Assembly: GCA_017469545.1 (NCBI GenBank)
Contig: JAFUGE010000008.1
Coordinates: 30,941 to 94,940, forward strand
DNA length: 64,000 nucleotides
Direction of reading: 5' to 3'
Source of the DNA: Clostridia bacterium
GTDB lineage: Bacteria > Bacillota > Clostridia > TANB77 > UBA1234
Shown: one piece after another, positions 11,806 to 64,000 of the stretch
Position numbering within the stretch: the stretch's first letter is position 1
Layout: the number at the start of each line of letters is the position of its first letter
Program-made: the position numbers and the translations under genes
The notes under the pieces: generated by a model
What the model was told of the DNA's origin: nothing
The model's input: the letters and a program-made list of their open reading frames with translations, nothing else
Databases searched by the model: none

Positions 11806-12047
11806 TAACCAAAGACAGTAGGTTGCAAATGTTTGCATAAAATATTCCTACCGAGGTAAAGGATCGGATTTTATCCAAGACATTTATTTCGGTGGAATAG
11901 ATGTCTTGGATTTTTTTGTAGGGGCGGTGTAATACGCCGCCCGCGGGTAGCGTACTACGCTACCCCTACAATGAATTTGGGCGCCCGGAGGGTGACCAAC
12001 GGACAGCCTACCACAATGATGGATTATCAATAAGAGGAGGTGTAAAA
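11806..12047 (+). promoter_or_regulatory. rplJ leader region with hairpins and an embedded REP doublet
   Basis: Hairpin CCAAGACAT...ATGTCTTGG (11877-11910) plus REP doublet 11918-11969, in the position of the L10(L12)4 autoregulatory leader. Confidence 0.3.
11918..11969. repeat. inverted doublet of REP-like elements with compensatory stem variants
   Basis: GTAGGGGCGGTGTAATACGCCGCCCG + CGGGTAGCGTACTACGCTACCCCTAC; each stem carries paired compensatory substitutions relative to consensus. Confidence 0.75.
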
Positions 12048-15917: not shown

Positions 15918-15969
15918 GTAGGGGCAGCGTATTACGCTGCCCGCTGGCGGCATGCTATGCCGCCCCTAC
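15918..15969. repeat. REP doublet: consensus copy + variant hairpin GGCGGCATGCTATGCCGCC ending CCCCTAC
   Basis: GTAGGGGCAGCGTATTACGCTGCCCG then CTGGCGGCATGCTATGCCGCCCCTAC; second stem entirely different sequence but same architecture. Confidence 0.75.
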
Positions 15970-15991
15970 AAAAGAAAGGAGATAAAACCAA

Positions 15992-47526: not shown

Positions 47527-47559
47527 TTTAGGGTCAGCGTGATACGCTGACCCTAAAAT
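47527..47559. repeat. REP-like variant, fully symmetric (TTTTAGGGTCAGCGTGATACGCTGACCCTAAAA)
   Basis: Compensatory GGGTCAGCGT/ACGCTGACCC stem; sits between convergent genes. Confidence 0.7.
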
Positions 47560-47950: not shown

Positions 47951-48092
47951 ATAAATCATCCTTTCTTAATGTTTAGACAATATATTATCTAAAATGTTCC
48001 AAATAATCAATAGATTTATGAGGATGTTGATTATTGGACATTTTTATGGTATTATGATTTCGAAGAATAACGGATATAGGGGGATTATATAT

Positions 48093-48551
48093 ATGGAATG
48101 TTTGTACAAAACAACTACAAAATATACATTAGAGGAGTATAAGAAATTTAACAATGCTATTTTGATGAAAAGACACACTTTGCTTTTATTATTGGCAGGA
48201 CTAGTTTTTATCTTGCTTGGGGGAATTATACTACGAAGTGAGTTTTTAATAATATTTGCAATCATATATCCATTCTTTTTTATTATAATTAAAAATAGTA
48301 GTGTAAAGAAAGTATTTAATTCGAATAAACTTACACAAAATGTTGATGTAACATTTGAATTTTATGAAGATCATTTTGAAGAAAATCATGAAGCTGGTCA
48401 AGCTAAGATACCATATGAAAAACTTCATGAAATAATAGAAACAAAAACTAATTTTTATTTAATGATTGCCAAAAATCAGGGTTACATGCTTGCAAAAGAA
48501 AATATGCCAGAAGGTTTAGAAGAATTTATAAGAACTAAAAGTAAGGTATAA
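48093..48551 (+). CDS. YcxB-like hypothetical membrane-associated protein
   Basis: Two central TM helices; AGGGGGA RBS before MECLYK. Confidence 0.3.
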   Translation: MECLYKTTTKYTLEEYKKFNNAILMKRHTLLLLLAGLVFILLGGIILRSEFLIIFAIIYPFFFIIIKNSSVKKVFNSNKLTQNVDVTFEFYEDHFEENHEAGQAKIPYEKLHEIIETKTNFYLMIAKNQGYMLAKENMPEGLEEFIRTKSKV

Positions 48552-48626
48552 ATAGAGAATTATAGTTTGTTCGTAATATTGTAATATTACACGCAAGTTA
48601 GAAAATATAATTAGGAGTGATTTATT

Positions 48627-48859
48627 TTGGCGACATCAAAAGAATATAAAGATTTTATAATAGAACAATTAGATTTATTAGATAATGTAACTTGCAAAGC
48701 AATAATACAAATAAAAAATATAATATGCAAGAGCAGTTACCTTATGAAAGTACAAAGCCTATGTATTTAGTTGATGATGTAGATAATATGGAATTATTAA
48801 AAGAAATTATACTTGAAACTTGCAAAGGTTTACCAAATAAAAAGTTTAAAGGAGTTTGA
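48627..48859 (+). pseudogene. TfoX N-terminal-domain gene remnant (internally deleted/frameshifted)
   Basis: TTG-start LATSKEYKDFIIEQLDLLDNVTCKAIIQ resembles TfoX_N MASSKEYLDFILEQL...; TfoX-like C-terminal end LPYESTKPMYLVDDVDNMELLKEIILETCKGLPNKKFKGV in another frame. Confidence 0.4.
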
Positions 48860-48914
48860 TGTATAATGGAAAATTTAGAATTGGAAAGATTGAATTATAA
48901 GAGGTGTTTGCAAA

Positions 48915-49469
48915 TTGACTGAAAAAGAGAAAATGTTGGCAGGACAAATTTATGATGCTAATTATGATAAGGAACTAATTGAGTTAAGATTAAATGCTAA
49001 GGAATTGTGTTATGAGTATAATAATTTAAGACCAAATGAGTTAGAAAAGAAAAAAGAGATAATAGAAAAGTTATTACAAAAATCACTTGGAGCTTTTACA
49101 ATAGAACCAAATTTTTATTGCGATTATGGATTTAACATTGAACTAGGAGAAAACTTTTATGCAAATCACAATTTAGTCTTATTAGATGCTAATAAAATAA
49201 AGTTTGGAGATAATGTTTTTATTGGACCAAATTGTGGATTTTATACTTCTGGACATCCGCTTGATTATGAAACCAGAAATAAAGGATTAGAATATGCCAA
49301 ACCTATAACCGTAGGAAATAATGTGTGGATTGGCGGAAATGTTTGTGTAATGCCAGGCGTAACAATAGGTGACAATGTTGTCATAGGAGCAGGAAGTGTA
49401 GTGGTAAAAGACATCCCTTCAAACGTTGTTGCTGTTGGAAATCCTTGTAAGGTAATGAAAGAAATATAA
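48915..49469 (+). CDS. sugar O-acetyltransferase (maltose/galactoside acetyltransferase family, hexapeptide repeat)
   Basis: N-terminal Mac domain, left-handed beta-helix hexapeptide repeats VFIGPNCGFYTSGHP. Confidence 0.8.
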   Translation: MTEKEKMLAGQIYDANYDKELIELRLNAKELCYEYNNLRPNELEKKKEIIEKLLQKSLGAFTIEPNFYCDYGFNIELGENFYANHNLVLLDANKIKFGDNVFIGPNCGFYTSGHPLDYETRNKGLEYAKPITVGNNVWIGGNVCVMPGVTIGDNVVIGAGSVVVKDIPSNVVAVGNPCKVMKEI

Positions 49470-49518
49470 AGCATATGATAGATGTAAAAAATAAAATTGT
49501 CAAGGAGGAATATGTGTT

Positions 49519-50505
49519 ATGGAAAACAAATTTGGATTAGTGTATCAAAATGCAATTACTGAAAATGAAGTAGGAAAGGTAAATATAAGACCAGTAGAGT
49601 ATGAAATTGATGGTATAAAAGTTTCAGCAAATCTTTACTTGCCTGCAAACTTTGACGAAAATCAAAAATATGCAGGAATTACGGTTGCTCACCCAAATGG
49701 TGGAATCAAAGAGCAAGTGGCAGGACTATTTGCACAAAATTTAGCAGAACTTGGATATGTAACGATTGCCTGTGATGCACGTTATCAAGGAGCATCTGGC
49801 GGAGAACCAAGAAACAGAGATTATCCAGAAAATAGAATAGACGATATTAGTGGAATGGTAGATTATCTTTCAAAATTAGATTTTGTAGATAACAATAGAA
49901 TTGGCTCACTTGGAATCTGCGGTGGTGGTGGCTATACTTTAGCTTGCGCTCAAACGGATAAGAGAATAAAAGCAGTGGCAACTTTAAGTATGTTTAATAC
50001 AGGTAGAGTAAGAAGAAATGGTTTCTTGGATAAAGACATAGCAACTATACAAGACAGATTAAACAAGTCAGCAGAAGCAAGAAATAAAGAAGTAAATGGA
50101 GAAGTTCAATACGAAGGTGAAACACCTCCTATGACAGAAGAACAATTAAGAAATATGATGGAAGGACTTCCTACTGGATTATATAGAGATGGCATTGAAT
50201 ATTATGGAATTACACATGCCCATCCAAATTCAACAGCTAAATATACAACAGCATCCTTAATGAAGTTAATGGCTTTTGATGTAGAAGATAGAATGGATTT
50301 AATTAATCAACCTTTACTTATGATGGGTGGCGATATTGCTGATACTTTATATATGACAAAAGATGCTTTTGAAAAAGCAACAGGAACAGAAAATAAAGAG
50401 TTATATTTGATTAAAGGTGCAACACATATTAGAACATACTGGGTTCCAGAATATGTTGAAGATGCTACAAATAAATTAAAAGATTTTTTCGGAAAAAATC
50501 TATAA
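49519..50505 (+). CDS. alpha/beta hydrolase (dienelactone hydrolase/esterase-like)
   Basis: GITVAHPNGGIKEQ, nucleophile elbow GICGGGGY. Confidence 0.6.
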   Translation: MENKFGLVYQNAITENEVGKVNIRPVEYEIDGIKVSANLYLPANFDENQKYAGITVAHPNGGIKEQVAGLFAQNLAELGYVTIACDARYQGASGGEPRNRDYPENRIDDISGMVDYLSKLDFVDNNRIGSLGICGGGGYTLACAQTDKRIKAVATLSMFNTGRVRRNGFLDKDIATIQDRLNKSAEARNKEVNGEVQYEGETPPMTEEQLRNMMEGLPTGLYRDGIEYYGITHAHPNSTAKYTTASLMKLMAFDVEDRMDLINQPLLMMGGDIADTLYMTKDAFEKATGTENKELYLIKGATHIRTYWVPEYVEDATNKLKDFFGKNL

Positions 50506-50644
50506 AATGGAAGTGATTATTTCGCGGGGATAATATAGCTTGCGTTAACAAATAGTTCATACAATCTAAACTATTTTATACTTCTTTTTCTGATCAAGTA
50601 CATATATAATACAATTAGAAATTAAAGAAAAGGAGAGAAAAACT

Positions 50645-51490
50645 ATGGAATATTTTGAATTGAATGATGGCAATAAAATGCCAGTTATAGGAATCGGAAC
50701 ATTTATGCTTACACCTGCTCAAGCGGAAGAATCTACTTTTAATGCTTTAAAAGCAGGTTACAGATTAATTGATACAGCTAATGCATATGTAAATGAAAAA
50801 GCAGTAGGCAGAGGAATGAAAAAGTCAGGAGTAGCTAGAGAAGATATTTTCTTAACTACAAAGCTTTGGCCAACCGTTTATGAAAATGAAAATGCAATCG
50901 ATAAAACTTTAGAAAGATTAGACACAGACTATATTGATTTATTATTACTTCACCAACCAGCTGGCAATTACATTAATGCATACAAGATGATGGAAAAAGC
51001 AGTTAAAGAAGGAAAAGTAAAATCTATAGGTTTATCAAATTTTGATACGAATCAAATTCAAGAGATTATAGATATGTGTGAAATTAAACCAGCTATTTTG
51101 CAAGTTGAGGCTCATCCATATTATACAGAGGAAGAATTAAAAGCTTTTGTTAAACCTTATGGCGTAAGGCTTATGGCTTGGTATCCATTAGGACATGGAG
51201 ATGCGAGTTTAATAAATGAAGAAGTATTTGCAAAGCTTGGAGAAAAATATGGTAAGTCTCCTGTACAAATTATTTTAAGATGGCATGTACAGATGGGCCA
51301 TGTCGTAATTCCTGGTGCAACATTAGAAGAACATATTAAAGCTAATATCGAAATTTTAGATTTTGAGCTTACTAGTGAAGATATGGCTGAAATTGCAAAG
51401 GTAAATAAAAATAAAAGATACTATGAACCAAATCCTGAAATAATTGCTAGCTATGCACAGATGGCACCAGATATGGATGGACAAGAATAA
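50645..51490 (+). CDS. aldo/keto reductase (2,5-diketo-D-gluconate reductase-like)
   Basis: IGIGTF, IDTANAYVNE, LLLLHQP, IPGATLEEHIKANIE motifs. Confidence 0.8.
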   Translation: MEYFELNDGNKMPVIGIGTFMLTPAQAEESTFNALKAGYRLIDTANAYVNEKAVGRGMKKSGVAREDIFLTTKLWPTVYENENAIDKTLERLDTDYIDLLLLHQPAGNYINAYKMMEKAVKEGKVKSIGLSNFDTNQIQEIIDMCEIKPAILQVEAHPYYTEEELKAFVKPYGVRLMAWYPLGHGDASLINEEVFAKLGEKYGKSPVQIILRWHVQMGHVVIPGATLEEHIKANIEILDFELTSEDMAEIAKVNKNKRYYEPNPEIIASYAQMAPDMDGQE

Positions 51491-51509
51491 ACTAAAAAGA
51501 TGTGACTAA

Positions 51510-52412
51510 TTAAGTCACATCTTTTTCCATATAATCTTTTATACAATTAATAAAGAATTCAAAACTTTTAGTTGGATTTTTTGAATAAATTATACCATAA
51601 GGAACTTCAACTTTATTTTTAAAAGGAATATTCACAAGCGAAGGATGGACATCTTTCCAGGCATTCAAGCTCATTAGAACATTTCCGTTTTCTTCACAAC
51701 GATTAAACACATCAATATCATACCAAAATGGAGTTGGTTCAATAGTAACATTTTTACTTTTTTCTAAAATAGATTCTCTCAAGTAATTTGATTTTTCGCT
51801 ATCGCCATCACAAATCATCATTATTGTTTCATTATCAAGATCGGAATAATCAATTTTTTTCTTGTTTGATAATTTATGGTTTCTAGGAACAGATGCAGTA
51901 TATTCGTAATTTCCAAGTTGAAGGAAGTTTAATTTTGTTTTCCACTCGGCAGAATCGCAAGGAGTAACAATGCAATCGAAATCAAAATCCTTTCCTTTTA
52001 GCGTTGTTAAAATATCAGTATGATTATCTTCGAATGGAACTATTTTAATTTTATAGTTAGGGTACTTATCATTAATTTTATACCATATATCCATTAATGG
52101 CTTGCAAGGGCAAATCACTGATGTACCGACTGTTATGGTGTTACTATCATTTTGTACAAGTTTATTTACATGACTTATTGAGTTTTTACAATACTGAACA
52201 ATATGTTTGGCATCTTTATATATTTGCTTACCAGCATTAGTTAATTTAATTCCATGATTTGTTCTTTCTAATAGTTTAACGCCAACATCATTTTCCATTA
52301 AATTCATTTGCTTCATAATTGCAGTAGAAGAAATAAAAAGCTTTTCAGAAGCTTTTGTAAAGCTGCCACATTCTACTACTTCAATAAATATGTCAAGATA
52401 CTTATTATACAT
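51510..52412 (-). CDS. LysR-family transcriptional regulator
   Basis: N-terminal HTH YLDIFIEVVECGSFTKASEKLFISSTAIMKQMNLME; divergent to cupin-flavodoxin genes. Confidence 0.75.
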   Translation of the reverse strand: MYNKYLDIFIEVVECGSFTKASEKLFISSTAIMKQMNLMENDVGVKLLERTNHGIKLTNAGKQIYKDAKHIVQYCKNSISHVNKLVQNDSNTITVGTSVICPCKPLMDIWYKINDKYPNYKIKIVPFEDNHTDILTTLKGKDFDFDCIVTPCDSAEWKTKLNFLQLGNYEYTASVPRNHKLSNKKKIDYSDLDNETIMMICDGDSEKSNYLRESILEKSKNVTIEPTPFWYDIDVFNRCEENGNVLMSLNAWKDVHPSLVNIPFKNKVEVPYGIIYSKNPTKSFEFFINCIKDYMEKDVT

Positions 52413-52556
52413 GAATTTCATCCTTTCACATGTAGAGTATATATTAATTTGTATCAACTTTAGGTTAATGCTATTATAACTAATTTGATATTCCAAAGTC
52501 AAGTATTTTTAGATATACTTCAAGTAGATAAAAATATTTATGGAGGGATAAAGATA

Positions 52557-52976
52557 ATGAATAAAGAAGAATTTGATAAAGTTAATGTATTTGGTCAAGG
52601 AGAGCCAAATGTAAATTTTGCTAGGTATTTTATTGGTAATTCGTATTTGAATCCATTAGCAAAAACAGATAATATGTTTTTAGCAAATGTCACATTTGAA
52701 CCAGCATGTCGAAACAATTGGCATATTCATAAAGCTACAAAAGGTGGAGGACAAATTTTAATATGCACAGCAGGGGAAGGATGGTATCAAGAAGAAGGAA
52801 AAGATGCAGTAGAATTAAAACCAGGTGTAGTAATTACGATTCCAGCCAATGTAAAACATTGGCATGGTGCAAAGAAGGATTCATGGTTTAGCCATATTGC
52901 AATAGAGGTGCCTGGGGAAAATACTACCACAGAATGGTGTGAACAAGTTATTGACGAGGAGTATAACAAACTATAA
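52557..52976 (+). CDS. cupin-domain protein
   Basis: NWHIHKATKGGGQILICTAGEGWYQEEG cupin motifs. Confidence 0.6.
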   Translation: MNKEEFDKVNVFGQGEPNVNFARYFIGNSYLNPLAKTDNMFLANVTFEPACRNNWHIHKATKGGGQILICTAGEGWYQEEGKDAVELKPGVVITIPANVKHWHGAKKDSWFSHIAIEVPGENTTTEWCEQVIDEEYNKL

Positions 52977-52997
52977 AAACATGAAAGAGGGATTATT

Positions 52998-53483
52998 TTG
53001 AAAACACTTATTGTATATTACTCACAAGCTGTTGGAAATACAGAAAGAATTGCAAATATGTTGCAAGAGAGCTTGAATGCAGATATGGAGAAGATAGATA
53101 CTGTTGTACCATATACTGGCTCTTATCAAGAAATATCTGAACAAGGGCACAAAGAAGTAAATAGAGGATATATGCCTGAGTTAAAACCAATTAATAGCAA
53201 TCTTGATATGTATGAAAGAATTATTGTTGCAACTCCAACTTGGTGGTACACAATGGCACCCGCGATACACACATTTTTAGCAAATCATGATTTATCTGAA
53301 AAAGGAGTTGTATTAGTACATACACATGCAGGATGGCCAGGCCATTGCTTAGAGGATATGGAGAAGCTTTGCAATGGTGCAAAAATTATTTCTAAAAAAG
53401 ATATTAAATTTGACTCTGATGGTGGAAATAATTTAGAAACATCAATGACAGAAATTGAAAAATGGATTGAGAGTATTAAATAA
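52998..53483 (+). CDS. flavodoxin-like protein
   Basis: MKTLIVYYSQAVGNTERIA FMN-binding N-terminus; TTG start. Confidence 0.7.
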   Translation: MKTLIVYYSQAVGNTERIANMLQESLNADMEKIDTVVPYTGSYQEISEQGHKEVNRGYMPELKPINSNLDMYERIIVATPTWWYTMAPAIHTFLANHDLSEKGVVLVHTHAGWPGHCLEDMEKLCNGAKIISKKDIKFDSDGGNNLETSMTEIEKWIESIK

Positions 53484-53520
53484 AACTGGCTGTGTAAATT
53501 AATCTGTGAAAAAATATTTG

Positions 53521-53546
53521 TAGGGGTCGGCCTCTGGACGACCCGA
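53521..53546. repeat. REP-like variant GTAGGGGTCGGCCTCTGGACGACCCG
   Basis: Same GTAGG...CCCG frame with different compensatory stem GGGTCG/CGACCC. Confidence 0.65.
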
Positions 53547-53562
53547 AATAGGGGGTTATAAT

Positions 53563-54210
53563 ATGAAAAGAAATATTTTAGTTTTAGGAATTTTAATGAT
53601 TGTAATGATTTTAGGATTATGTGCATGTGGGGAACAACCAATAGATAATAATGAAAATAATGTTGAAAATAATAATTCAAATGAAGTTCAAATAGGTAAT
53701 AATAATGAAACGGAGGAAAATGCAGTGACTACAAATAGTGAAGGAAATGCTTTAGTAGTATATTTTTCTTGGGCAAATCATACGGAAAAAATGGCGAGCG
53801 TAATCGCCGCTGAAACAGGAGCAGATGTTGCAGTGATTGAACCTGTTAATGCTTATCCAACAGACTATAATGAATGTACGGAAGTAGCTTTGGAAGAACA
53901 AAGAAGAGGAGAAAAACCAGCGATTAAAGATTTAGGACTTGATTTAGAGGACTATGATGTAATATACTTAGGTTATCCAATTTGGTGGATGGATATGCCA
54001 CAAGTATTATATACTTTCTTAGAAAACAATGATTTCTCTGGCAAAACAATTTATCCTTTTACAACAAGTTATAGCTCAGGTATTATTGGCACGTTTGATA
54101 AAATTAAAAATATTGCAACAGGTGCTGATGTGGAAGAAGGACTTCATATTTTCCAAAGAGAAATTGATAGAGACAACTACGAAGAAACAATTAAAGATTG
54201 GCTTAAATAA
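53563..54210 (+). CDS. flavodoxin-like lipoprotein (extracytoplasmic)
   Basis: Lipobox GLCAC; LVVYFSWANHTEKMA and GYPIWWMDMP flavodoxin-like motifs. Confidence 0.65.
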   Translation: MKRNILVLGILMIVMILGLCACGEQPIDNNENNVENNNSNEVQIGNNNETEENAVTTNSEGNALVVYFSWANHTEKMASVIAAETGADVAVIEPVNAYPTDYNECTEVALEEQRRGEKPAIKDLGLDLEDYDVIYLGYPIWWMDMPQVLYTFLENNDFSGKTIYPFTTSYSSGIIGTFDKIKNIATGADVEEGLHIFQREIDRDNYEETIKDWLK

Positions 54211-54226
54211 TGAGGTATGATACTAA

Positions 54227-54251
54227 GGGTCGCATATTATGCGACCCCTAC
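54227..54251. repeat. REP-like variant, reverse orientation (GGGTCGCATATTATGCGACCCCTAC)
   Basis: Compensatory stem GGGTCGCAT/ATGCGACCC with CCTAC flank. Confidence 0.65.
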
Positions 54252-54313: not shown

Positions 54314-54995
54314 ATGGAAATAAAGACGAAGAAACGAATCAAAATAATAGTTGATATTTTGATGTATGTTTGTTTGATTACACTAATGGGTTATCATATT
54401 ACAAATAATCTCATTCATGAAATTCTTCGGAACAACTATATTTGTTCTATTTATCATACATAATGCTTTCAATTTCAAATGGTATATGACACTGTTTAAA
54501 GGGAAGCACGACTTGCGTAGAAATTTTCACATATTAATTAATGCACTGCTATTAGTTGCAATGATATTAACGATAATAAGTGGCGTTATGATGTCTCGAA
54601 GTTTATATACATTTGTTAATTTTGGCAAAGCAGCACTTGCAAGAAGAATGCATTTGATTGCGAATAGTTGGACTCTTGTTTTAGTATCAATTCATTTAGG
54701 AATGCATCTTACGCCAATGACGTCAAAAATTAGGACAAAACTGCAAGCAAGTAGAATTAAGTATGCGGTATATGTAATCCTTGTGTTATTTGTGATCCTT
54801 GGAATATATTTATTTATCAAAGCTGGATTCTTCCAAGATATGTTTGGCATCACTAGTTTTAAGTTTATGGATACAGAAGAAAATCCAGTAGTGTTTTATT
54901 TGAAGCAATTAGATATATCACTTACGATAGCATTGGTTACCCATTGGTTATGGAATGTGAAAAGCGCTAGGAGGAAATATGAGAAAACTAGATAA
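54314..54995 (+). pseudogene. DUF4405-family membrane protein with +1 frameshift (extra C at 54428)
   Basis: Frame A MEIKTKKRIKIIVDILMYVCLITLMGYHITNNLIHEILRNNYICSIYHT*; removing c54428 gives ...LIHEILGTTIFVLFIIHNAFNFKWY continuing into the tracked 192-aa ORF. Confidence 0.55.
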
Positions 54996-55653
54996 TTTCT
55001 TGAAAAATAGGAGTATTGATACTGCAAAATTATTGGAGTATGGATTTACTAAGCAAGGAAAAGAATATGTATATCACACCAAAATATATGAAGAACAATT
55101 TGAAATGTTTGTAAGTTTTTCTGCCAAGCAAAACATAGCAAAGATTGTTGACATTGCAAACGAGGAAGAGTACGTACTTGTGGATAATCCAAATTCAGTA
55201 GGGAAATTTGTTGGCAAGCTTAGAGAAGAATACGAAAATAAGTTGCAGGATATGATTGAAAAGTGCACGATTTTGGATGTATTCAAAGAAATGCAGTCAA
55301 AAGAAATCATTCAATTGGTAAAAGAAAAATATCAGGACGATTTAGAGTTTTTGTGGAAGAAGTTTCCCGATAATGCGATTTGGAGAAACAAAACGAATCG
55401 TAAATGGTATGCCGCGTTATTAACTGTTTCGGAAAGAAAATTGGGGATTGATTCGGATGCGGTTGTGGAGATTATCGACTTAAGGTATCAAAAGGATAAA
55501 ATCAAAGAATTGGTTGATAACAAGTTTGTATTTCCTGGTTATCATATGAATAAAGATAGTTGGATTACGATAAAATTGGATGGTAGTGTGGATACAGAAA
55601 AAATTTTAGAGCTATTAGAGAATAGCTATCAATTATCGCTAGAGAAAAAGTAG
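54979..55653 (+). CDS. MmcQ/YjbR-family domain protein with extra N-terminal domain
   Basis: C-terminal WRNKTNRKWYAALLTV...FVFPGYHMNKDSWITIKLDGSV resembles YjbR/MmcQ. Confidence 0.45.
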   Translation: MRKLDNFLKNRSIDTAKLLEYGFTKQGKEYVYHTKIYEEQFEMFVSFSAKQNIAKIVDIANEEEYVLVDNPNSVGKFVGKLREEYENKLQDMIEKCTILDVFKEMQSKEIIQLVKEKYQDDLEFLWKKFPDNAIWRNKTNRKWYAALLTVSERKLGIDSDAVVEIIDLRYQKDKIKELVDNKFVFPGYHMNKDSWITIKLDGSVDTEKILELLENSYQLSLEKK

Positions 55654-55729
55654 TTTGTGGAGGAGAGTATGCATTACATTGAGGCGAAATCATTGCTGAC
55701 AAGGTGGAATGGTATGGATGTAGAGCGGA

Positions 55730-55759
55730 TTGACAAAAGTGGCCTTTTGGAGGTATAAT
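55730..55759 (+). promoter_or_regulatory. sigma-A promoter for tcdA copy 1
   Basis: TTGACA, 18 bp, TATAAT. Confidence 0.45.
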
Positions 55760-55771
55760 GGCGAATATGCA

Positions 55772-55795
55772 GGGCAGCTTTGTTTGGCTGCCCGC
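55772..55795. repeat. degenerate REP-like hairpin
   Basis: GGGCAGC TTTGTTT GGCTGCCCG lacking GTAG flank. Confidence 0.4.
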
Positions 55796-55823
55796 AAATG
55801 ATGTACATAAAAGAGGGGACGAA

Positions 55824-56576
55824 ATGTTAAATCAATTTTCAAGAACAGAATTGTTGATAGGTAAAGAGGCATTAGAGAAACTAAGTAATGCAAAGGTTGC
55901 CGTTGTTGGAATCGGAGGAGTTGGCTCTTATGTAGTGGAGGGCTTGGTCCGCGCTGGAGTAGGAAATTTTGTGTTAGTGGACGACGATAAGGTTTGCCTT
56001 ACGAATTTAAATAGACAGCTAATTGCTACGAGGAAGACGGTTGGAAAGTATAAAGTGGAAATGGCAAAGGAAAGAATTTTAGAGATAAATCCAAAGGCGA
56101 ATGTGGAAACTTTTCAGGAATTTTTCTTGCCGGAGACCGAAGGAATTATTGACGAGAGTGTGGATTACATTGTGGATGCGGTGGATACCGTTACGGCAAA
56201 AATCGAACTTGTGATGAGAGCGAATAAGCTTCATATTCCGATTATTTCTTGTATGGGTACGGGCAACAAATTAGACCCTACCAGATTTGAGGTAACAGAT
56301 ATTTTTAAAACAAGTGTATGTCCACTTGCTAAAGTAATGCGAAAGGAATTAAGGACGAGAGGAATCAAGCATTTAAAAGTGTTGTATTCCAAAGAGGAAC
56401 CGATAAAACCTGACGAGACTTTGGAATGCAGCTGTAAGACGGGCTGTATCTGCCCTCCTGGAACGGTCAGAAAATGTACGCAGAGAAACCAAGTGCCGGG
56501 AAGTATTTCTTTTGTGCCATCCGTTGCCGGATTAATCATTAGTGGCGAAGTAATTAAAGATATTATCAATCTGTAG
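55824..56576 (+). CDS. tcdA: tRNA threonylcarbamoyladenosine dehydratase (TcdA/CsdL, ThiF/MoeB family), copy 1
   Basis: Rossmann VAVVGIGGVGSYVVEGLVRAGVGNFVLVDDDKVCLTNLNRQ; stop codon TAG lies inside GTAG of the following REP. Confidence 0.75.
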   Translation: MLNQFSRTELLIGKEALEKLSNAKVAVVGIGGVGSYVVEGLVRAGVGNFVLVDDDKVCLTNLNRQLIATRKTVGKYKVEMAKERILEINPKANVETFQEFFLPETEGIIDESVDYIVDAVDTVTAKIELVMRANKLHIPIISCMGTGNKLDPTRFEVTDIFKTSVCPLAKVMRKELRTRGIKHLKVLYSKEEPIKPDETLECSCKTGCICPPGTVRKCTQRNQVPGSISFVPSVAGLIISGEVIKDIINL

Positions 56577-56598
56577 GGTCAGCGTAGCACGCTGACCG
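56573..56598. repeat. REP-like variant GTAGGGTCAGCGTAGCACGCTGACCG
   Basis: Compensatory GGGTCAGCGT/ACGCTGACC stem; overlaps tcdA-1 stop. Confidence 0.75.
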
Positions 56599-56620
56599 CT
56601 ATGAAAAAGGAGAATAGAGT

Positions 56621-57379
56621 ATGAATAAAAAATTGATTTTTGGTTTAATTTTATGTATTTTGACAATTGGGTTAGTTGCTTGCACGGAGCAAAATGAAGT
56701 GATTGATAATCAAGATAACCCAGTCGAAGAACAAGTGCAAGAAAATGTAGAAGTAGTGGATAATGGCGAAGAACAAGCAGTGGAAAATAATGAGAATGAA
56801 GCTGAAGTAGTGGAGAAAAACAATAATGAAGAAATAAATGTTGAAAATAGTGAGAAGAAAATTTTAATTGCTTTTTTCTCAAGAGCTGATGAAAATTATT
56901 CAGTAGGAACAGTAGATGTTGGAAATACAGAAATCATGGCAGGATTTATCAAAGATTATTTAGGCGATAAGGCTGATACATTTAAAATAGATCCTGTTGT
57001 TGCATACCCAAAAGATTATAAAGAGTGTACAGAATATGCAACAAAAGAATTAAATGAAAATGCAAGACCAGAATATAAAAATGCAGATAGTTTAGATATG
57101 TCAAAGTATGATACAGTTATATTAGGCTACCCAATTTGGTGGGGTGATGTTCCAATGATTATTAATACATTTTTAGAGAAATACGATTTTTCTGGCAAGA
57201 CAATTTACTTGTTTAATACACACGAAGGAAGCGGAAATAGTGGAACATACACATCAATTAAAAATAAAATGACATCAGCAAATGTAGATACTAATGGCTT
57301 AGCAATTAGGGGTGCTGAAGCAAGAAAAGAGTCTTCAAGAAACACAGTAGAAAACTGGCTAAAAGGATTAGGTTTATAA
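56621..57379 (+). CDS. flavodoxin-like lipoprotein, paralog of 53563-54210
   Basis: Lipobox LVAC; ILIAFFSRADENYS, GYPIWWGDVP, DFSGKTIYLFNT shared with the other lipoprotein flavodoxin. Confidence 0.65.
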   Translation: MNKKLIFGLILCILTIGLVACTEQNEVIDNQDNPVEEQVQENVEVVDNGEEQAVENNENEAEVVEKNNNEEINVENSEKKILIAFFSRADENYSVGTVDVGNTEIMAGFIKDYLGDKADTFKIDPVVAYPKDYKECTEYATKELNENARPEYKNADSLDMSKYDTVILGYPIWWGDVPMIINTFLEKYDFSGKTIYLFNTHEGSGNSGTYTSIKNKMTSANVDTNGLAIRGAEARKESSRNTVENWLKGLGL

Positions 57380-57507
57380 AGGGAAATAGCTGAATTACTA
57401 TTTGTATGACACTATTAAAAGCTATGGACTAAGCAAAGAAAAAATGAAAAATTGTAGAATTAAAAGTTGCATTTTAATTTTTAATTTGCTAGAATTAAAT
57501 CGTAAAT

Positions 57508-57533
57508 TGTAGGGGCAGCGTATCACGCTGCCC
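57508..57533. repeat. REP-like element (exact consensus)
   Basis: GTAGGGGCAGCGTATCACGCTGCCCG. Confidence 0.8.
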
Positions 57534-57556
57534 GTGAAGAAAGGAGGAAAACACAC

Positions 57557-57619
57557 ATGACAAACCTTGTAACCGTTGGGGCTGTACACACACACACACA
57601 CACACAAGTAATTCGTTAA
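57557..57619 (+). CDS. candidate 20-aa small ORF MTNLVTVGAVHTHTHTQVIR containing the (CA)10 tract
   Basis: AAGGAGG RBS 57541-57547, ATG 57557, stop TAA 57617; could be fortuitous. Confidence 0.2.
   Translation: MTNLVTVGAVHTHTHTQVIR
57588..57607. repeat. (CA)10 dinucleotide microsatellite
   Basis: cacacacacacacacacaca read directly; only SSR of this kind in the window. Confidence 0.9.
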
Positions 57620-57656
57620 ATATAGAATTTTATAATAAAATACGCGATGGATAAAG

Positions 57657-57767
57657 TTTCCTAAAAGGGCGCGTACAGACGGGAGTAAAATGTGCACGAA
57701 AACAATTTGCAGAGACAAATTGAAATGCACATTTTAGTCCTGTGTGTACATGTCCCTTTTAGGAAAC
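57657..57767 (+). promoter_or_regulatory. long imperfect inverted repeat (42-nt arms, 27-nt loop) followed by T-run upstream of pilin-like gene
   Basis: GTTTCCTAAAAGGGCGCGTACAGACGGGAGTAAAATGTGCAC vs TGCACATTTTAGTCCTGTGTGTACATGTCCCTTTTAGGAAAC then CTTTTTGTTTC. Confidence 0.45.
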
Positions 57768-57805
57768 TTTTTGTTTCAATAAAAAATAATGGGAGGTAAC
57801 AATTT

Positions 57806-59452
57806 ATGAACAAAAGATCAAACAAAGGCATATCTTTAATTGCCTTAATCATAACAATAATCGTAATAATAATTTTAGCAGCAATTGTTATTGGTGGAGT
57901 GTTCAACACACCTAATGACGCAAAATTCGCAAACTTCTGCCAAGAGTATGACAGAGTGCAAACAGCAATTCAATTAAAGTACTATGAATTATATCAAAAA
58001 TATGCAATATCAGTTTCAACAGAAGTGCCAACACATTATGAAATGTATAATGAAGTAGCAACAGGCACAAAGGCAGACACGCTAACAGGAGCAAATAATA
58101 TAGACTCAGATAAATGGGTAACAATATCAGAAAGTCAGTGGGGAATAGGCAGTAACAAGATATGTGCAAAGCCATCATTTGCTGGTAATTGGTATGTAAG
58201 ATTAAATGATGGAAAACTAGCCTATGCAGGATTTGAAAAAGGCGAGCAAGATATGTATTATACACCTACAGCACATACAACAGGAAATAGGACTGCACAA
58301 GCGGTGGATTATTTTAATGGATTAACTTTAGGGACTGCCGCAGATAGTGAAACGCAAAGTGGACTTTTGGCACTAGTGCTAGGCGAAGGTGGAGGAAGTA
58401 GCAATGGAAGTGGAGACGGTGGTGCAGAAACATTACCAGAGCTAGAAGAAGGCGAAGCATATCTAGCACAAGTAGCCAAAGTAGGAGACTATGTAAAATA
58501 TGTAGCAGATAGTGGCACATGGACACCAGACCCAACTAAAACAGGAAACAGTAATGCAACACCACTAAGAACAGATACAAGTACTGCTTGGAGAGTATGG
58601 GAAAACAATGGAACAACAGTAACACTAATACCAACAAGCCCAGTAAACACATTATATTTAGGAACTAGGGCAAGTACAAGTAACACAAGTTCTCCAGCGC
58701 CAACAGATGATACAGGTGCAACATATGGAGTAGCAGGATATGTGAATGGACCAAGCCTAATGAATGAAATAGCAAGAACATTATATAGTAAGAGTGGATA
58801 CACTAGCAGCGTAAGACATATGACATATGAAGATATACAAGCAAAATTAAAAACACCATTTACACCGACAGCAAATAAATATGCGTATTTTAAAAGTGGA
58901 GATAGCTCGACGTTATCTGCAGGTTCAGCCTATATGAAGAGGACACACACGACAAGTTTATATAATGGAATCACAGAGCCAAGATTTTATACCTGGGACA
59001 CAGATGGAGTAACATATGATACAGACCCAACTTCAGAAACATATCAAGTAAGGACAGATAGTAATGGAAGGACATATATGACACCAACAACAGGACACCC
59101 AGTATATGTGACATATACATATATCAAATCTTCGATAGCAGCAGATAATTGGGCAGATGTAACAGATACACATGCAACAGGCACAACAACTTATGGAAAT
59201 ATTTTGGGAGGTTCGTATAGTTGGCTGGCCTCGCCGTGCGTGTATTTGAGCACTGGCGGTGCGCACTTCTACATGCGCATTGTTGCTTCGGATTACTTGA
59301 ACGGCAATTCCTTGGCTGGCTCGCATGGCGAATCGGCCTCTCGCAGCAATAGTCTTCGCCCCCTAGTAACGCTTAGCTCTTCGGTCAGAGTAAATACAAC
59401 GGATAGTGCCAAAAACGGCTCTACAACAGCAAATGCATGGATAATCAAATAA
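57806..59452 (+). CDS. large N-terminally anchored pilin-like surface protein (prepilin-like leader lacking Glu5), Thr/Gly/Ser-rich
   Basis: MNKRSNKGISLIALIITIIVIIILAAIV resembles class III signal peptide/KG-cleavage site; codon usage (ACA/GCA/GGA-rich) and a GC-rich C-terminal segment 59210-59400 differ from neighbours. Confidence 0.45.
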   Translation: MNKRSNKGISLIALIITIIVIIILAAIVIGGVFNTPNDAKFANFCQEYDRVQTAIQLKYYELYQKYAISVSTEVPTHYEMYNEVATGTKADTLTGANNIDSDKWVTISESQWGIGSNKICAKPSFAGNWYVRLNDGKLAYAGFEKGEQDMYYTPTAHTTGNRTAQAVDYFNGLTLGTAADSETQSGLLALVLGEGGGSSNGSGDGGAETLPELEEGEAYLAQVAKVGDYVKYVADSGTWTPDPTKTGNSNATPLRTDTSTAWRVWENNGTTVTLIPTSPVNTLYLGTRASTSNTSSPAPTDDTGATYGVAGYVNGPSLMNEIARTLYSKSGYTSSVRHMTYEDIQAKLKTPFTPTANKYAYFKSGDSSTLSAGSAYMKRTHTTSLYNGITEPRFYTWDTDGVTYDTDPTSETYQVRTDSNGRTYMTPTTGHPVYVTYTYIKSSIAADNWADVTDTHATGTTTYGNILGGSYSWLASPCVYLSTGGAHFYMRIVASDYLNGNSLAGSHGESASRSNSLRPLVTLSSSVRVNTTDSAKNGSTTANAWIIK

Positions 59453-59460
59453 ATCATAGG

Positions 59461-59484
59461 TGGCGCTCGATTGGGCGCCATTTT
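59461..59484 (+). terminator. rho-independent terminator
   Basis: TGGCGC/GCGCCA stem + TTTT. Confidence 0.5.
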
Positions 59485-59661
59485 AAATTTTGGGGGACGG
59501 AGGAAAAATTTAAAAAATAATATAATCGTAAAGTTGTCATTATAAAGGACTAAGCAAGTAGTTGTTGAAAACTGCTTGCTTTTGTGTTATTATTTAGTCA
59601 AATAAATGTGATTTTAATGAAGTTTGTAGTAATTATAAAAATCACGAAGGAGTAAGTAATA

Positions 59662-60414
59662 ATGTTAAATCAGTTTTCAAGAACAGAATTATTAATAGGC
59701 AAAGAAGCCTTAGATAAATTAAGTAATGCAAAAGTAGCTGTTATAGGAATTGGAGGAGTCGGCTCTTATGTGGTTGAAGGGTTGGTAAGAGCGGGAGTTG
59801 GCAATTTCGTTTTAGTTGATGATGATAAAGTTTGTTTGACTAATTTAAATAGACAGCTTATTGCTACAAGAAAAACAGTTGGAAAATATAAAGTTGAAAT
59901 AGCGAAGGAAAGAATTTTAGAAATCAATCCAAAAGCTAATGTAGAAATTTATCAAGAGTTTTTCTTGCCAGAGACACAAGGCATCATTGATGAAAGTGTT
60001 GATTACATAGTGGACTGTGTTGATACAGTTACTGCAAAAATTGATCTTGTGATGAGAGCAGATAAGCTAAACATACCAATTATTTCTTGCATGGGAACAG
60101 GCAATAAACTAGACCCAACAAGATTTGAAGTTACTGATGTTTTTAAGACTAGTGTTTGCCCGCTTGCTAAAGTGATGCGAAAAGAATTAAGAGCAAGAGG
60201 TATCAAACATTTAAAAGTGCTATATTCAAAAGAGGAGCCAATAAAGCCAGATGAAACACTGGAATGTAGTTGCAAAACAGGCTGTATATGCCCACCAGGT
60301 ACGGTAAGAAAATGTACACAGAGAAATCAAGTGCCAGGAAGTATTTCGTTCGTACCTTCTGTTGCTGGATTAATTATTGCTGGCGAAGTTATAAAAGATA
60401 TCATAAAAATGTAG
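59662..60414 (+). CDS. tcdA: tRNA threonylcarbamoyladenosine dehydratase (TcdA/CsdL), copy 2
   Basis: ~95% aa identical to copy 1 but many synonymous nucleotide differences; stop TAG inside following REP. Confidence 0.75.
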   Translation: MLNQFSRTELLIGKEALDKLSNAKVAVIGIGGVGSYVVEGLVRAGVGNFVLVDDDKVCLTNLNRQLIATRKTVGKYKVEIAKERILEINPKANVEIYQEFFLPETQGIIDESVDYIVDCVDTVTAKIDLVMRADKLNIPIISCMGTGNKLDPTRFEVTDVFKTSVCPLAKVMRKELRARGIKHLKVLYSKEEPIKPDETLECSCKTGCICPPGTVRKCTQRNQVPGSISFVPSVAGLIIAGEVIKDIIKM

Positions 60415-60436
60415 GGGCAGCGTATCACGCTGCCCG
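60411..60436. repeat. REP-like element (exact consensus) overlapping tcdA-2 stop
   Basis: GTAGGGGCAGCGTATCACGCTGCCCG. Confidence 0.8.
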
Positions 60437-60459
60437 CAAAAAAAAGGAGCTTTGTATTA

Positions 60460-61553
60460 TGGAGAAGAAATTAGGTTTTGGGTGTATGCGCCTTCCAATG
60501 AAAGGCGAAGAAGTTGATTATGATGAATTTAATAAAATGATTGATTATTATATGGAACAGGGGTTTAATTATTTTGATACTGCTCATGGATATATTGGGG
60601 GTAAGAGCGAAACTGCAATTCGTGATTGTTTAGCGGCAAGGTATCCAAGAGAAAGCTATATCCTTACTGATAAATTGACGAAGCCATATTTTAATACAGA
60701 GGAAGATATTAGACCATTTTTTGAAAGTCAATTAAAACTAACAGGAGTAGAATATTTTGATTACTATTTAATGCATGCACAAGATAGAGATAATTATAAG
60801 CATTTTCAAAAATGTCACGCATATGAAGTTGCGCAAGAATTAAAGGCAGAAGGAAAAGTTAAACATGTTGGAATATCTTTTCATGATACTGCAGATATGT
60901 TAGAAAAAATATTAACTGACCATCCTGAAATAGAAATTGTACAAATACAGTTTAACTATATAGATTTTAAAGATGCTGGTGTACAAAGTGAGAAATGCTA
61001 TGAAGTTTGCAGAAAGTATAATAAACCTGTTCTAGTAATGGAACCAGTTAAAGGTGGAGGACTAGTTAATTTGCCAGATGAGGCTAAAGCCGTTTTTAAT
61101 GAGTTAAATAAAGACTTAAGTTATGCTAGCTATGCAATTCGTTTTGCAGCATCGTTTGATGGAATATATAAAGTACTTTCTGGGATGAGCAATTTTGAAC
61201 AACTAAAAGATAATGTCAGCTACATGAAAGAGTTTGAACCACTAAATGATGAAGAATATATTGCAATAAATAAAGTTGTAACAATACTTAAAGAAAATGG
61301 TGGTATTCCATGTACAGCTTGTAGATACTGCACAGATGGATGCCCAATGAGAATTTCAATTCCTGATTTGTTTGCTTGTTACAATGCAAAGAAACAATTT
61401 AAAGATTGGAATTCATCATACTATTATGATGTACATACAAAGACAAATGGTAAAGCATCTGATTGCATTAAGTGCGGTCAATGTGAAAGTGTATGTCCAC
61501 AACATTTAAAAATAACAGAACTATTAGAAAAAGTTGCAGAAACATTTGAATAG
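60460..61553 (+). CDS. aldo/keto reductase fused to C-terminal 4Fe-4S ferredoxin domain
   Basis: GFGCMRLP, YFDTAHGY AKR motifs; C-terminal CTACRYCTDGCP and CIKCGQCESVCP cysteine clusters; tracked start at 60270 reads through the REP and is spurious. Confidence 0.75.
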
Positions 61554-61601
61554 TAAATAAAAACAGTACTACGATTATGTGTAGTACTGTTTTTTTGAAA
61601 A

Positions 61602-61841
61602 CTAAATTGATTTAGAATTTTCATATAATTCATTAGGATCTATATCTTCACCATCTGGCCATTCAATTGTTGTATCAGCAGATTTTAGAAGCAAGAAATA
61701 TGCTATATTTTTTAATTTTTCATAATATGGATGAATTAACTGTTTTTGCATATTATATAATTTCTTTTCTCCATCGTAATATTCTATTTCAATATCATAA
61801 TTTTCAAATGCTTTAACACTTTTGATTCTAGGTGGAATCAT
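61602..61841 (-). CDS. DUF2442-like small protein, hypothetical
   Basis: 79-aa ORF, RBS AGGAGG upstream on minus strand. Confidence 0.35.
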   Translation of the reverse strand: MIPPRIKSVKAFENYDIEIEYYDGEKKLYNMQKQLIHPYYEKLKNIAYFLLLKSADTTIEWPDGEDIDPNELYENSKSI

Positions 61842-62016
61842 AAAATAACCTCCTTTATTTCAAAGGCTCGATTTGTGTTTACCAAATACTAATTTGGTAA
61901 GATGATAGTAACACGAAAAAAATAAAAATGCAATAAATTTTAAAAAAGTATATATATTAAAAAAACTGATTATTGAATATATAAATTGCACATAATATGC
62001 AAAAGGATGTGATTTT

Positions 62017-63532
62017 GTGAATTCATATTGGATTGACTCTGTTGATAAAATTGAAGGAAAAACAATTGACAAAGATTATGAAGCTGATGTTTGCATTATT
62101 GGTGCAGGGATAACTGGACTTAGTACGGGGTATTATTTAGCTAAAGAAGGATTAAAAGTTATTATAATTGATAAGAAAGGAATAGGAGAAAAAGCATCAG
62201 GCCATACAACTGCAAAAATTACTTTGCAGCATAATTTGATTTATGATTATTTGATTAATTCTTTTGATGAAGAATTTGCACGCAAATATTTTGAAGCAAA
62301 TGATAATGCAATTAAAAATATAAAAGAAATAATAGAAAGTGAAAAAATAGATTGTGATTTTGAATATCAGCCTAATTTTGTATACACAGAGAATCAAGAT
62401 AAAGTACTAAAAATTCAAAAAGAAGTAGATGCAATAAATAAACTGTCACGGTGAAAATAATTATGCAGAGTTTGCAACTAAATGTGAATTACCTTTTAAA
62501 ATTGCTGGTGCAATAAAGATTAATAACCAAGCACAATTTCATCCAGTTAAATATATGCATGGATTAGCAAACGCAATTGAAAAATATAATGGAATTATTT
62601 TTACAAACTCTATTGTTGATGATGTACAAAGAGATGGTGACGATTTTAAGGTCTTTAGCAATAATCATGAAATAAAAGCTAAGTATGTAGTGATTGCATC
62701 ACATTATCCATTTTTAAATTTCCCAGGCTTTTATTTTTCTAAAATGTATCAATCAACATCATATGCAATTGCTATTGAAACTAGTAAAACAATTCCAGAC
62801 GGAATGTATATTAATGATGAAGAGCCAACACTTTCTTTTCGAACTGCTAAATATGGAGACAAAAGAATTTTAATCATTGGTGGCGGAAATCATAAGACTG
62901 GATTTTCGCCAGATAGCGATGAGAATTATGGATATGATTTTTTGGAGAGACAAGCAAAAAAATATTATCCAGATTGTAATGTGCTATACAAGTGGAATAC
63001 GAGAGATTGCATAACTCTTGATAAAGTACCATATATTGGAGAGTTTTCACACTTTATGCCAAACATGTTTGTCGCAACAGGTTTTAATAAGTGGGGAATG
63101 ACTTCATCTAATGTTGCTGCAAATATTATTTCTGATAGTATTTTAGGAGTAGAAAATGAATATGCAGATGTTTTTAATTCTATGAGAATGGAACCAGTAA
63201 AAAATAGAGGAGAAATGAAAAATATGTTGGGACAAGTTTTTCAGTCATTTGTTACAAATAGAATTAAAATACCGGACGAAGATTTATCCGTAATAAAGAA
63301 CGATAATGGTGGAATTATCAAGTTAGATGGTACAACTATTGGGGTTTATAAAGATAAAGAAGGAAATGTATGCGCAGTTGATCCAACTTGTACGCATTTG
63401 GGATGCTTATTAACGTGGAATAATGTGGATAAGACATGGGATTGTCCTTGCCATGGCTCGCGATTTAATTATGATGGCAAAAACCTGTATGACCCAGCTT
63501 TTAAGGACTTAGATAAGTATGAAATATATTAA
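62017..63532 (+). pseudogene. FAD-dependent oxidoreductase with C-terminal Rieske [2Fe-2S] domain, +1 frameshift (extra C at 62449)
   Basis: N-terminal DVCIIGAGITGLSTGYYLA FAD motif; frame breaks at tca-C-ggt; downstream frame continues to CTHLGCLLTWN...CPCHGSRF Rieske motif. Confidence 0.6.
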
Positions 63533-63689: not shown

Positions 63690-64000
63690 ATGTCAGGACA
63701 TAGCAAATGGAATAATATTAAAAACAAGAAAGAAAAATCAGATGCACAGAGAGGAAAAATATTTACTAAGTTAGGTAGAGAAATCCTTATTGCTGTAAAA
63801 GAAGGTGGCCCTGACCCTGCATCTAACTCTAAGCTTAGAGATGTTGTTGCAAAATGTAAAGCAAATAATATGCCAAATGATAATATTGAGAGAAGTATTA
63901 AAAAGGCTGCTGGAGACGGAAATGCGGCTAATTATGAAGATATTACATATGAAGGATATGGTCCAAATGGTGTTGCTATCATTATTGAGGCTATGACGGA
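63690..64000 (+). CDS. YebC/PmpR-family transcriptional regulator (DUF28), 3'-truncated by window end
   Basis: [32 protein letters not shown] matches YebC N-terminus; GGAGG RBS. Confidence 0.8.

Follow-up and report, generated by a model that had tools for sequence, protein, structure and literature searches.

Two neighbouring tcdA genes of a ruminant gut Clostridia genome encode near-identical proteins in strongly diverged DNA: a presumed resident copy and a presumed imported xenolog

The window analysed here is a 64,000-nt stretch (contig JAFUGE010000008.1, positions 30,941 to 94,940) of an uncultured Clostridia genome from ruminant gut metagenomes. It carries two copies of tcdA, called c1 and c2 below, in direct orientation and 3838 bp apart; the NCBI records of the proteins are MBQ9267193.1 and MBQ9267196.1, and both are publicly annotated as tRNA threonylcarbamoyladenosine dehydratase. 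The original prediction, made from the sequence alone, had described two tcdA paralogs of about 95% protein identity with extensive synonymous divergence, a GC-richer first copy, stop codons supplied by repetitive extragenic palindromic (REP) sequences, and a flavodoxin-lipoprotein/pilin-like segment between the copies. All of this was recovered, although the term 'paralogs', taken strictly, probably does not apply. The features around the two genes are listed below with the GC content at third codon positions (GC3) of several of them; block B is the low-GC stretch that begins directly after c1.

54417..55653, plus strand: DUF4405 membrane protein and YjbR-family protein (PF14358, PF04237), upstream of c1
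55730..55759, plus strand: sigma-70-type promoter-like site, TTGACA-18-TATAAT, 12/12, consensus match only, upstream of c1
55770..55796, plus strand: REP-like hairpin GGGCAGC-loop-GCTGCCC, presumed 5' leader of c1
55824..56576, plus strand: tcdA copy 1 (c1), 250 aa, 753 nt, PF00899 at 9e-42, bulk-type composition, presumed resident
56573..56599, plus strand: T-variant GTAG-REP (GGTCAGCG..CGCTGACC, compensated stem), supplying the TAG stop of c1; left edge of block B
56621..57379, plus strand: flavodoxin-like (Flavodoxin_4) lipoprotein, 252 aa, GC3 0.20
57509..57535, plus strand: canonical REP between the flavodoxin and 548-aa genes
57653..57770, no strand: 118-nt imperfect inverted repeat/hairpin with 17-nt perfect outer arms, upstream of the 548-aa gene
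57806..59452, plus strand: 548-aa protein with a prepilin-like hydrophobic N-terminus, GC3 0.26, singleton cluster
59458-59483 and 59552-59581, plus strand: two terminator-like hairpins, consensus matches only, ahead of c2
59565-59593, plus strand: promoter-like site with extended -10, consensus match only, ahead of c2
59662..60414, plus strand: tcdA copy 2 (c2), 250 aa, 753 nt, PF00899 at 1e-41, near block-type composition, presumed imported xenolog
60411..60437, plus strand: canonical GTAG-REP, source of the TAG stop of c2, with its register as at c1
60459-61553, plus strand: aldo-keto reductase with a 4Fe-4S domain (AKR-ferredoxin), rest of block B
61602-61841, minus strand: DUF2442, rest of block B
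62017-62454 and 62555-63532, plus strand: split DAO/Rieske oxidoreductase, rest of block B
63690..64000, plus strand: 5' part of yebC, GC3 0.19-0.23; the right edge of block B lies just past the window end

The start codon of c1, ATG 55824, is preceded by a Shine-Dalgarno sequence (AGAGGGG) and aligns with the start of c2 and of all homologues; the 272-aa open reading frame (ORF) given for c1 in some assemblies is a spurious upstream extension through the REP-like hairpin. Judged from the consensus matches, c1 and c2 each appear to have a promoter-like site of their own. In both genes the TAG of the GTAG tag is the stop codon, the contexts being CTG TAG GGT CAGCG... and ATG TAG GGG CAGCG..., that is, one REP family in one register.

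TcdA-type enzymes catalyse the ATP-dependent cyclisation of N6-threonylcarbamoyladenosine at position 37 (t6A37) to its cyclic form ct6A in tRNA. PF00899 spans residues 10-247 of both proteins, and the glycine-rich ATP motif VGIGGVGS is visible in both. The top NCBIfam match was TcdA (NF011696, 2e-45), ahead of MoeB/ThiF at 1e-27; the NF011696 scores of 155.5 and 152.8 bits are under the equivalog cutoff of 304 because only residues 3-178 match this model, which is built on proteobacterial TcdA and from which the C-terminal third differs. The top PDB matches were E. coli TcdA (5.5e-38; 4D7A, 4YED, 4RDH) and then yeast Tcd1 (2e-29), before E1, ThiF and MoeB enzymes. For genomic context, 80 tcdA loci were fetched and neighbours were counted in 50 related loci. 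The upstream neighbour was MnmA in 10 and TsaD in six of these, and the downstream neighbour a PP-loop ATPase in nine and a class-V (cysteine-desulfurase-like) aminotransferase in two, while within the window no tRNA-modification gene of these kinds (MnmA, TsaD, PP-loop ATPase) adjoins c1 or c2. The sequence comparisons make the TcdA assignment of both proteins a reasonable one.

The two proteins agree at 235 of 250 positions (94.0%) in a gap-free alignment, and the genes at 613 of 753 nucleotides (81.4%). By codon position the differences number 15, 4 and 121 of 251, so that 48% of the third positions differ. The NG86 method gave a dN of 0.034, a dS of 2.6 and an omega of 0.013, while omega was 0.029 by LWL85 and 0.006 by maximum likelihood; dS is saturated and depends on the method (1.25 to above 5), with omega in the range of 0.006-0.03. 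Overall GC is 40.5% in c1 and 34.8% in c2, GC3 is 0.39 against about 0.22-0.23, and the fraction of G at four-fold degenerate sites (four-fold G) is 0.29 against 0.13. Since each gene is compositionally homogeneous, neither is chimeric, and gene conversion between them was rejected because the differences are spread evenly along the gene. The amino-acid changes are symmetric, about 5-6 per copy and all conservative. Both copies are intact and equally diverged in protein from the outgroups; there is no sign of decay in either.

Ortholog pairs of the family at 94-96% protein identity usually differ at a fraction of 0.07-0.32 of third positions, so that the value of 0.48 for c1 and c2 is extreme and their divergence pattern is unusual for the TcdA family. 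The excess is accounted for by composition: c1 has shifted to a GC3 of 0.39, whereas the tcdA genes of relatives have 0.07-0.26. In part, high protein identity over diverged DNA is a trait of the family, because TcdA is exceptionally conserved in this clade: its identity between species is 80-88%, against 50-75% for other proteins of the same loci.

Could the pair be an assembly artefact, a false join at a repeat between two strains or species, so that c1 and c2 do not belong to one genome? The source is a metagenome, REP copies of 21-29 nt flank the segments, and Logan contigs break there: the short ones cover separate pieces of the c1-c2 region, and L001 terminates at the canonical REP 57509..57535. 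However, the join from YjbR through c1, the flavodoxin gene and the REP to the 548-aa gene is bridged in several independent assemblies, which differ in sample and assembler and include a MEGAHIT k141 contig, and the same holds for the join from the 548-aa gene through c2 to the AKR-ferredoxin gene. The region is without Ns, and copies of merely 81% identity are too different for a collapse or mis-join. The c1/c2 arrangement recurs in several independent assemblies of different samples (L002, L003, L086 and L087), the locus is also present on a 265-kb scaffold, and both copies are found in every sampled strain. An assembly chimera, which we regard as scarcely credible, was therefore rejected on the evidence of the independent assemblies. 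Close relatives carrying both copies in this context, which would have made this an old stable duplication, were looked for and not found; the arrangement is limited to conspecific assemblies.

L086 and L087 are strain variants of 55308-59376, and their sole difference in c1 is a change of codons 220-223 from QRNQ to KTNH, three clustered nonsynonymous changes without synonymous ones. The changes fall on R and Q residues that hardly vary across the TcdA family. The patch could be a multinucleotide mutation or reflect local selection; a conversion tract was rejected, as the flanking synonymous sites of c1 still differ from c2.

The two copies belong to different compositional classes of the window. 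As 'bulk' we took the genes at 13-47 kb and those downstream of yebC (dtd, tex and rbr), a class judged on no more than about 70 kb of sequence. These genes have a four-fold G of 0.23-0.26 and a GC3 of 0.3-0.45, while two low-GC blocks, 47994-54210 and 56621-63532, have a four-fold G of 0.07-0.09, A above 0.5 and a GC3 of 0.14-0.26. The DUF4405 and YjbR genes upstream of c1 are of the bulk type (GC3 0.31 and 0.35, four-fold G 0.23), and the genes of block B at 60459..63532 have a GC3 of 0.14-0.23. In 40-codon windows GC3 is 0.30-0.45 across c1 and 0.07-0.30 from 56621 on, the drop coming directly after the REP that ends c1. Ribosomal-protein genes show a third signature, with T-rich four-fold sites and more C in two-fold codons, and an expression-linked (translational) optimisation as the cause of the low GC3 of c2 was rejected on this ground.

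At the right-hand side, yebC, which runs beyond the window end, was read from L002 (14029-14754, corresponding to window 63690 to ~64415). Its GC3 changes from 0.19 to 0.45 at codon 118, at about window coordinate 64044 (Fisher p=3e-5, permutation p=0.002), and dtd, tex and rbr further downstream have a GC3 of 0.36-0.41. No such switch was seen in yebC of the relatives RGIG4463 and the P0135 lineage, the profiles of which are fairly flat, so an intrinsic property of yebC was rejected. Block B is thus set off from the genome backbone by sharp edges in composition. The backbone GC3 of the host is 0.40 (tex) against 0.20-0.28 in those relatives, and the low-GC segments are at the relatives' level; the host backbone has become GC-richer than that of its relatives. 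In all of the relatives examined, synteny breaks on the 5' side of yebC, while the order yebC, small ORF, dtd, tex is conserved downstream. Upstream of yebC lie polA in RGIG4463, rplKAJL-orf-orf in another lineage, and DUF2442-DUF4160 in L090.

When the synonymous differences between c1 and c2 were polarised with 10 outgroups, 51 were derived on c1, 43 of these from AT to GC, and 24 on c2. The third-position distance to every low-GC relative is 0.44-0.46 for c2 and 0.51-0.57 for c1. Because of the codon composition, the asymmetric AT-to-GC synonymous change on c1 and the compositional breakpoint in yebC, we lean, on balance, towards c1 being the resident tcdA and c2 a xenolog (pseudo-paralog) that came in on about 7.4 kb of DNA of a related sister lineage of lower GC. 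The acquisition of one copy from a related lineage, one of the two explanations offered in the original prediction, is thus the one that the evidence favours.

Under such an import, the host lineage would have raised its GC3 and the sister clade would not. The block from ~56.6 to 64.04 kb would have come in as one piece of sister-clade DNA, bringing the flavodoxin lipoprotein, the 548-aa protein, c2, the AKR-ferredoxin, DUF2442, the DAO/Rieske gene and codons 1-118 of yebC. Entry may have been by one-sided homologous recombination with the right-hand crossover inside the conserved yebC, while the left-hand join, directly after the REP ending c1, would have been illegitimate (non-homologous) or REP-assisted. 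The position of this left join would explain why the tcdA of the host was kept and not replaced. We infer the direction of the transfer and the recombination mechanism, and likewise the enzymatic activity of c1 and c2 as TcdA.

Parts of the block are echoed in other genomes. L090 represents a low-GC sister lineage with a GC of 31% and a YebC of 95% identity, in which DUF2442 lies a short way upstream of yebC, like its counterpart in the block. The third-position difference between the yebC of the window and that of L090 is 0.30 for codons 1-118 and 0.47 from codon 119 to the end, and the latter value matches the 0.48 between c1 and c2. In L009, tcdA lies 2 kb upstream of an AKR-ferredoxin gene with a 73%-identical product, echoing the context of c2, and in L049 and L075 yebC is found downstream of tcdA.

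The REP sequences at the two stops belong to a family that is dense in this genome. The repeat (T)GTAG-GGGCAGCGTAnnACGCTGCCC-GC occurs at 17 sites of the window (598, 3856, 6332, 7734, 8342, 11945, 13127, 15922, 18022, 22244, 25816, 39862, 45676, 47532, 56577, 57513 and 60415) against 0 expected (0 in 100 shuffles of 64 kb). This corresponds to about 1 per 3.8 kb, in both orientations. The palindrome is flanked by (T)GTAG on the 5' side and GC on the 3' side in one orientation and the reverse in the other, and variants lie at 54224-54250, ~11920-11944 and ~15945-15975. With GTAG at the foot of a GC-rich palindrome and many dispersed copies, the family has the features of GTAG-tagged REPs; inverted pairs resembling bacterial interspersed mosaic elements (BIMEs) involve a second REP type. 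The compensated T-variant was found only at 47532 and 56577, in each case at the left-hand edge of a low-GC block. Among the fetched loci, those of other species lack the family, which appears to be species-specific in this set, L009 having its own, different REP family directly after the tcdA stop.

Several observations weigh against an import of c2. The two genes are mutual nearest relatives: in a search of ~5.8 billion protein clusters they fell into one 90% cluster of four sequences, all from the host species, the next best match being at 87-88%, and no TcdA above 88% identity was found outside the host species. A neighbour-joining tree joins c1 and c2 with a bootstrap of 191/200, which an internal duplication predicts likewise. 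They are sisters, then, either duplicated within the lineage or with one of them from an unsampled lineage closer than any sampled species. Neither a donor with a near-identical block (cluster look-ups of tcdA, its neighbours and YebC, and contexts of the nearest TcdA matches) nor a conspecific strain without the block (cluster look-ups) was found, and the block proteins all form near-singleton clusters. In the closest sampled relatives tcdA does not adjoin yebC. The same REP family stands in the same register at both stops, so its insertion either is older than the c1/c2 split, in which case the donor must share the family, or took place twice, and a further canonical REP of the host type lies inside the block at 57513. 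A parallel insertion is possible: in L009 the tcdA stop is directly followed by a REP of another family, and the donation of TAG stops by GTAG REPs has been described (Di Nocera et al. 2013, PMC3733652). Lastly, the bulk composition to which c1 is matched comes from the stretch of about 70 kb mentioned above, and the clade does include a case in which tcdA was duplicated locally and as a gene alone.

This last case is RGIG8531 (L007/L008/L088, JAGAKS010000016.1), which holds an independent, young duplicate. Its copies share 95.6% nucleotide identity over 797 nt, with homology from -47 to the stop, a dS of 0.14 and an omega of 0.15. They are 15.4 kb apart, with SLH/LRR surface proteins, a two-component system and a MacB-type ABC transporter between them. 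Among the other species in the 80 fetched loci only RGIG8531 gave two tcdA genes, in keeping with the earlier statement that a duplication of tcdA is uncommon. The SLH proteins around these copies had suggested that tcdA might be a general anchor beside variable surface-protein genes; this was unsupported, as the 50 loci mostly have tRNA-modification, metal-transport and repair neighbours.

Because no donor was found, an old duplication within the lineage has to be considered as a tentative alternative. Here a local copy of tcdA with its terminal REP would have arisen once the lineage had separated from the nearest sampled species. Purifying selection would then have kept both copies, and the GC3 gap would, as tentatively, stem from local regimes or a later replacement of the flanks. 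The mutual nearest relationship, the direct orientation at a distance of 3838 bp, the shared REP register, the symmetric amino-acid change with neither copy decaying and the duplicate in RGIG8531 would all fit. However, a shared genome predicts a shared mutational bias, yet c1 has about twice the derived synonymous changes, nearly all of them AT-to-GC; each copy fits the codon class of its own neighbours, and the block that holds c2 ends on the right at the change point in yebC. There is also no trace of a larger duplicated unit. The lipoprotein 56621-57379 is only 39% identical to the flavodoxin lipoprotein 53563-54210, and blastn homology is limited to the coding sequence and the REP, so that a tandem duplication of a unit running from flavodoxin lipoprotein to tcdA was rejected.

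The opposite direction, in which c1 with DUF4405 and YjbR came from a GC-richer relative and c2 is native to a natively low-GC region, seems quite unlikely. In its favour, the context of c2 is echoed elsewhere (AKR-ferredoxin in L009, yebC in L049 and L075, DUF2442-yebC in L090), while the YjbR/DUF4405 context of c1 is almost without echo in other species; c1 is also slightly nearer to the RGIG4463 protein (32 differences, against 36 for c2). Against this, the composition of c1 is that of the conserved backbone on both sides (13-47 kb; dtd, tex and rbr) and of most of the 70 kb, and the 3' half of yebC and everything downstream are c1-like. Synteny was uninformative for the ancestral position of tcdA, as the neighbours are poorly conserved over 80 species loci and the genes upstream of yebC differ in the nearest relatives.

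If c2 is indeed the imported copy, the low dN/dS is mostly the mark of ordinary purifying selection from the time when the two genes were orthologs, each the single copy of its own genome. The original prediction had proposed strong purifying selection on two copies. The omega of ~0.01-0.03 bears out the selection itself, but selection on co-resident copies does not follow, because with a xenologous c2 most of the divergence predates co-residence. Therefore, a very low dN/dS between neighbouring copies should not be taken as proof of selection for two, as one of them may be a recently imported ortholog. Two further ideas, which even together we consider improbable, are that c1 and c2 were retained for different jobs, or that the direct REP copies, which exactly bracket a 3838-bp unit, mediated its insertion. 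Different jobs could mean different tRNA substrates (t6A versus ms2t6A), a heterodimer, or condition-specific expression, with a consensus promoter and leader hairpin at c1 and a position in a redox/flavodoxin gene block for c2. In that case the gene-only duplication of tcdA, arising twice independently in the clade, would be adaptive, and two functionally distinct TcdA enzymes would stand as a rare example, in bacteria, of specialised ct6A synthases.

Some further observations concern the genes of the low-GC blocks. The 548-aa protein gave no Pfam or NCBIfam match. Upstream of its gene lies a (CA)n microsatellite at 57586-57606, and an Rfam search of 52-64 kb gave no credible RNA family, the 118-nt hairpin included. 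The last 60-80 codons of the gene hold a GC-rich patch (59220-59376, GC3 0.62), with a change-point statistic for the gene that was reached by 0/300 permutations. The position 59376/59377 is the exact end or start of three independent contigs, suggesting a population-level branch point or recombination edge. The FAD-dependent oxidoreductase with a Rieske domain is present as two ORFs in different frames in both covering assemblies (L002 and L003) and is probably a frameshifted pseudogene. The second low-GC block, 47994-54210, has a GC3 of 0.17-0.22, and a variant of the REP marks its end shortly ahead of DUF4405. Its products are a YcxB-like protein, a hexapeptide acetyltransferase, an alpha/beta hydrolase, an aldo-keto reductase, a LysR regulator, a cupin and two flavodoxins, and may be another imported redox or detoxification island.

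For a poorly known group of small-genome gut Clostridia, the locus documents a housekeeping gene, yebC, as a recombination edge, a rise of host GC3 relative to relatives, and a dense GTAG-REP family as a supplier of stop codons. On the reading favoured here it is an ordinary outcome of gene transfer, a new example of a known event in a mosaic, REP-rich region.

With E. coli TcdA/CsdL and B. subtilis YrvM the two proteins share the ThiF-type adenylating Rossmann domain and the GxGGxGS motif. YrvM, the Firmicute homologue, has been shown experimentally to make ct6A and ms2ct6A (PMC5389704). The alignment with E. coli TcdA covers residues 3-179 only, and the C-terminal 70 residues of the c1 and c2 proteins hold a Cys-rich segment (CSCKTGCICPPGTVRKC) outside the part aligned with the E. 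coli protein. Unlike in the E. coli and B. subtilis systems, two copies are present in one genome. In this respect the pair resembles TCD1 and TCD2 of S. cerevisiae, likewise two TcdA-family genes kept in one genome (on the yeast Tcd enzymes, see PMC13139853), but these are a eukaryotic pair, whereas the pair described here is 94% identical in protein and its co-residence is probably recent. The GTAG-tagged REPs (PMC3733652) likewise have a 5' GTAG beside a GC-rich palindrome, a high copy number, intergenic positions in both orientations and BIME-like pairs; the main text of that study names neither Firmicutes nor Clostridia, while the host here is a metagenome-assembled Clostridia genome. Finally, as in xenologous duplicates formed by homology-facilitated illegitimate recombination, divergent copies lie side by side, each matching another compositional class, and one boundary of the presumed foreign block is in a conserved gene (yebC) while the other is non-homologous. 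The locus differs from the model cases in that the mechanism is deduced from composition only and that no known relative of the resident copy is closer to it than the presumed foreign one.

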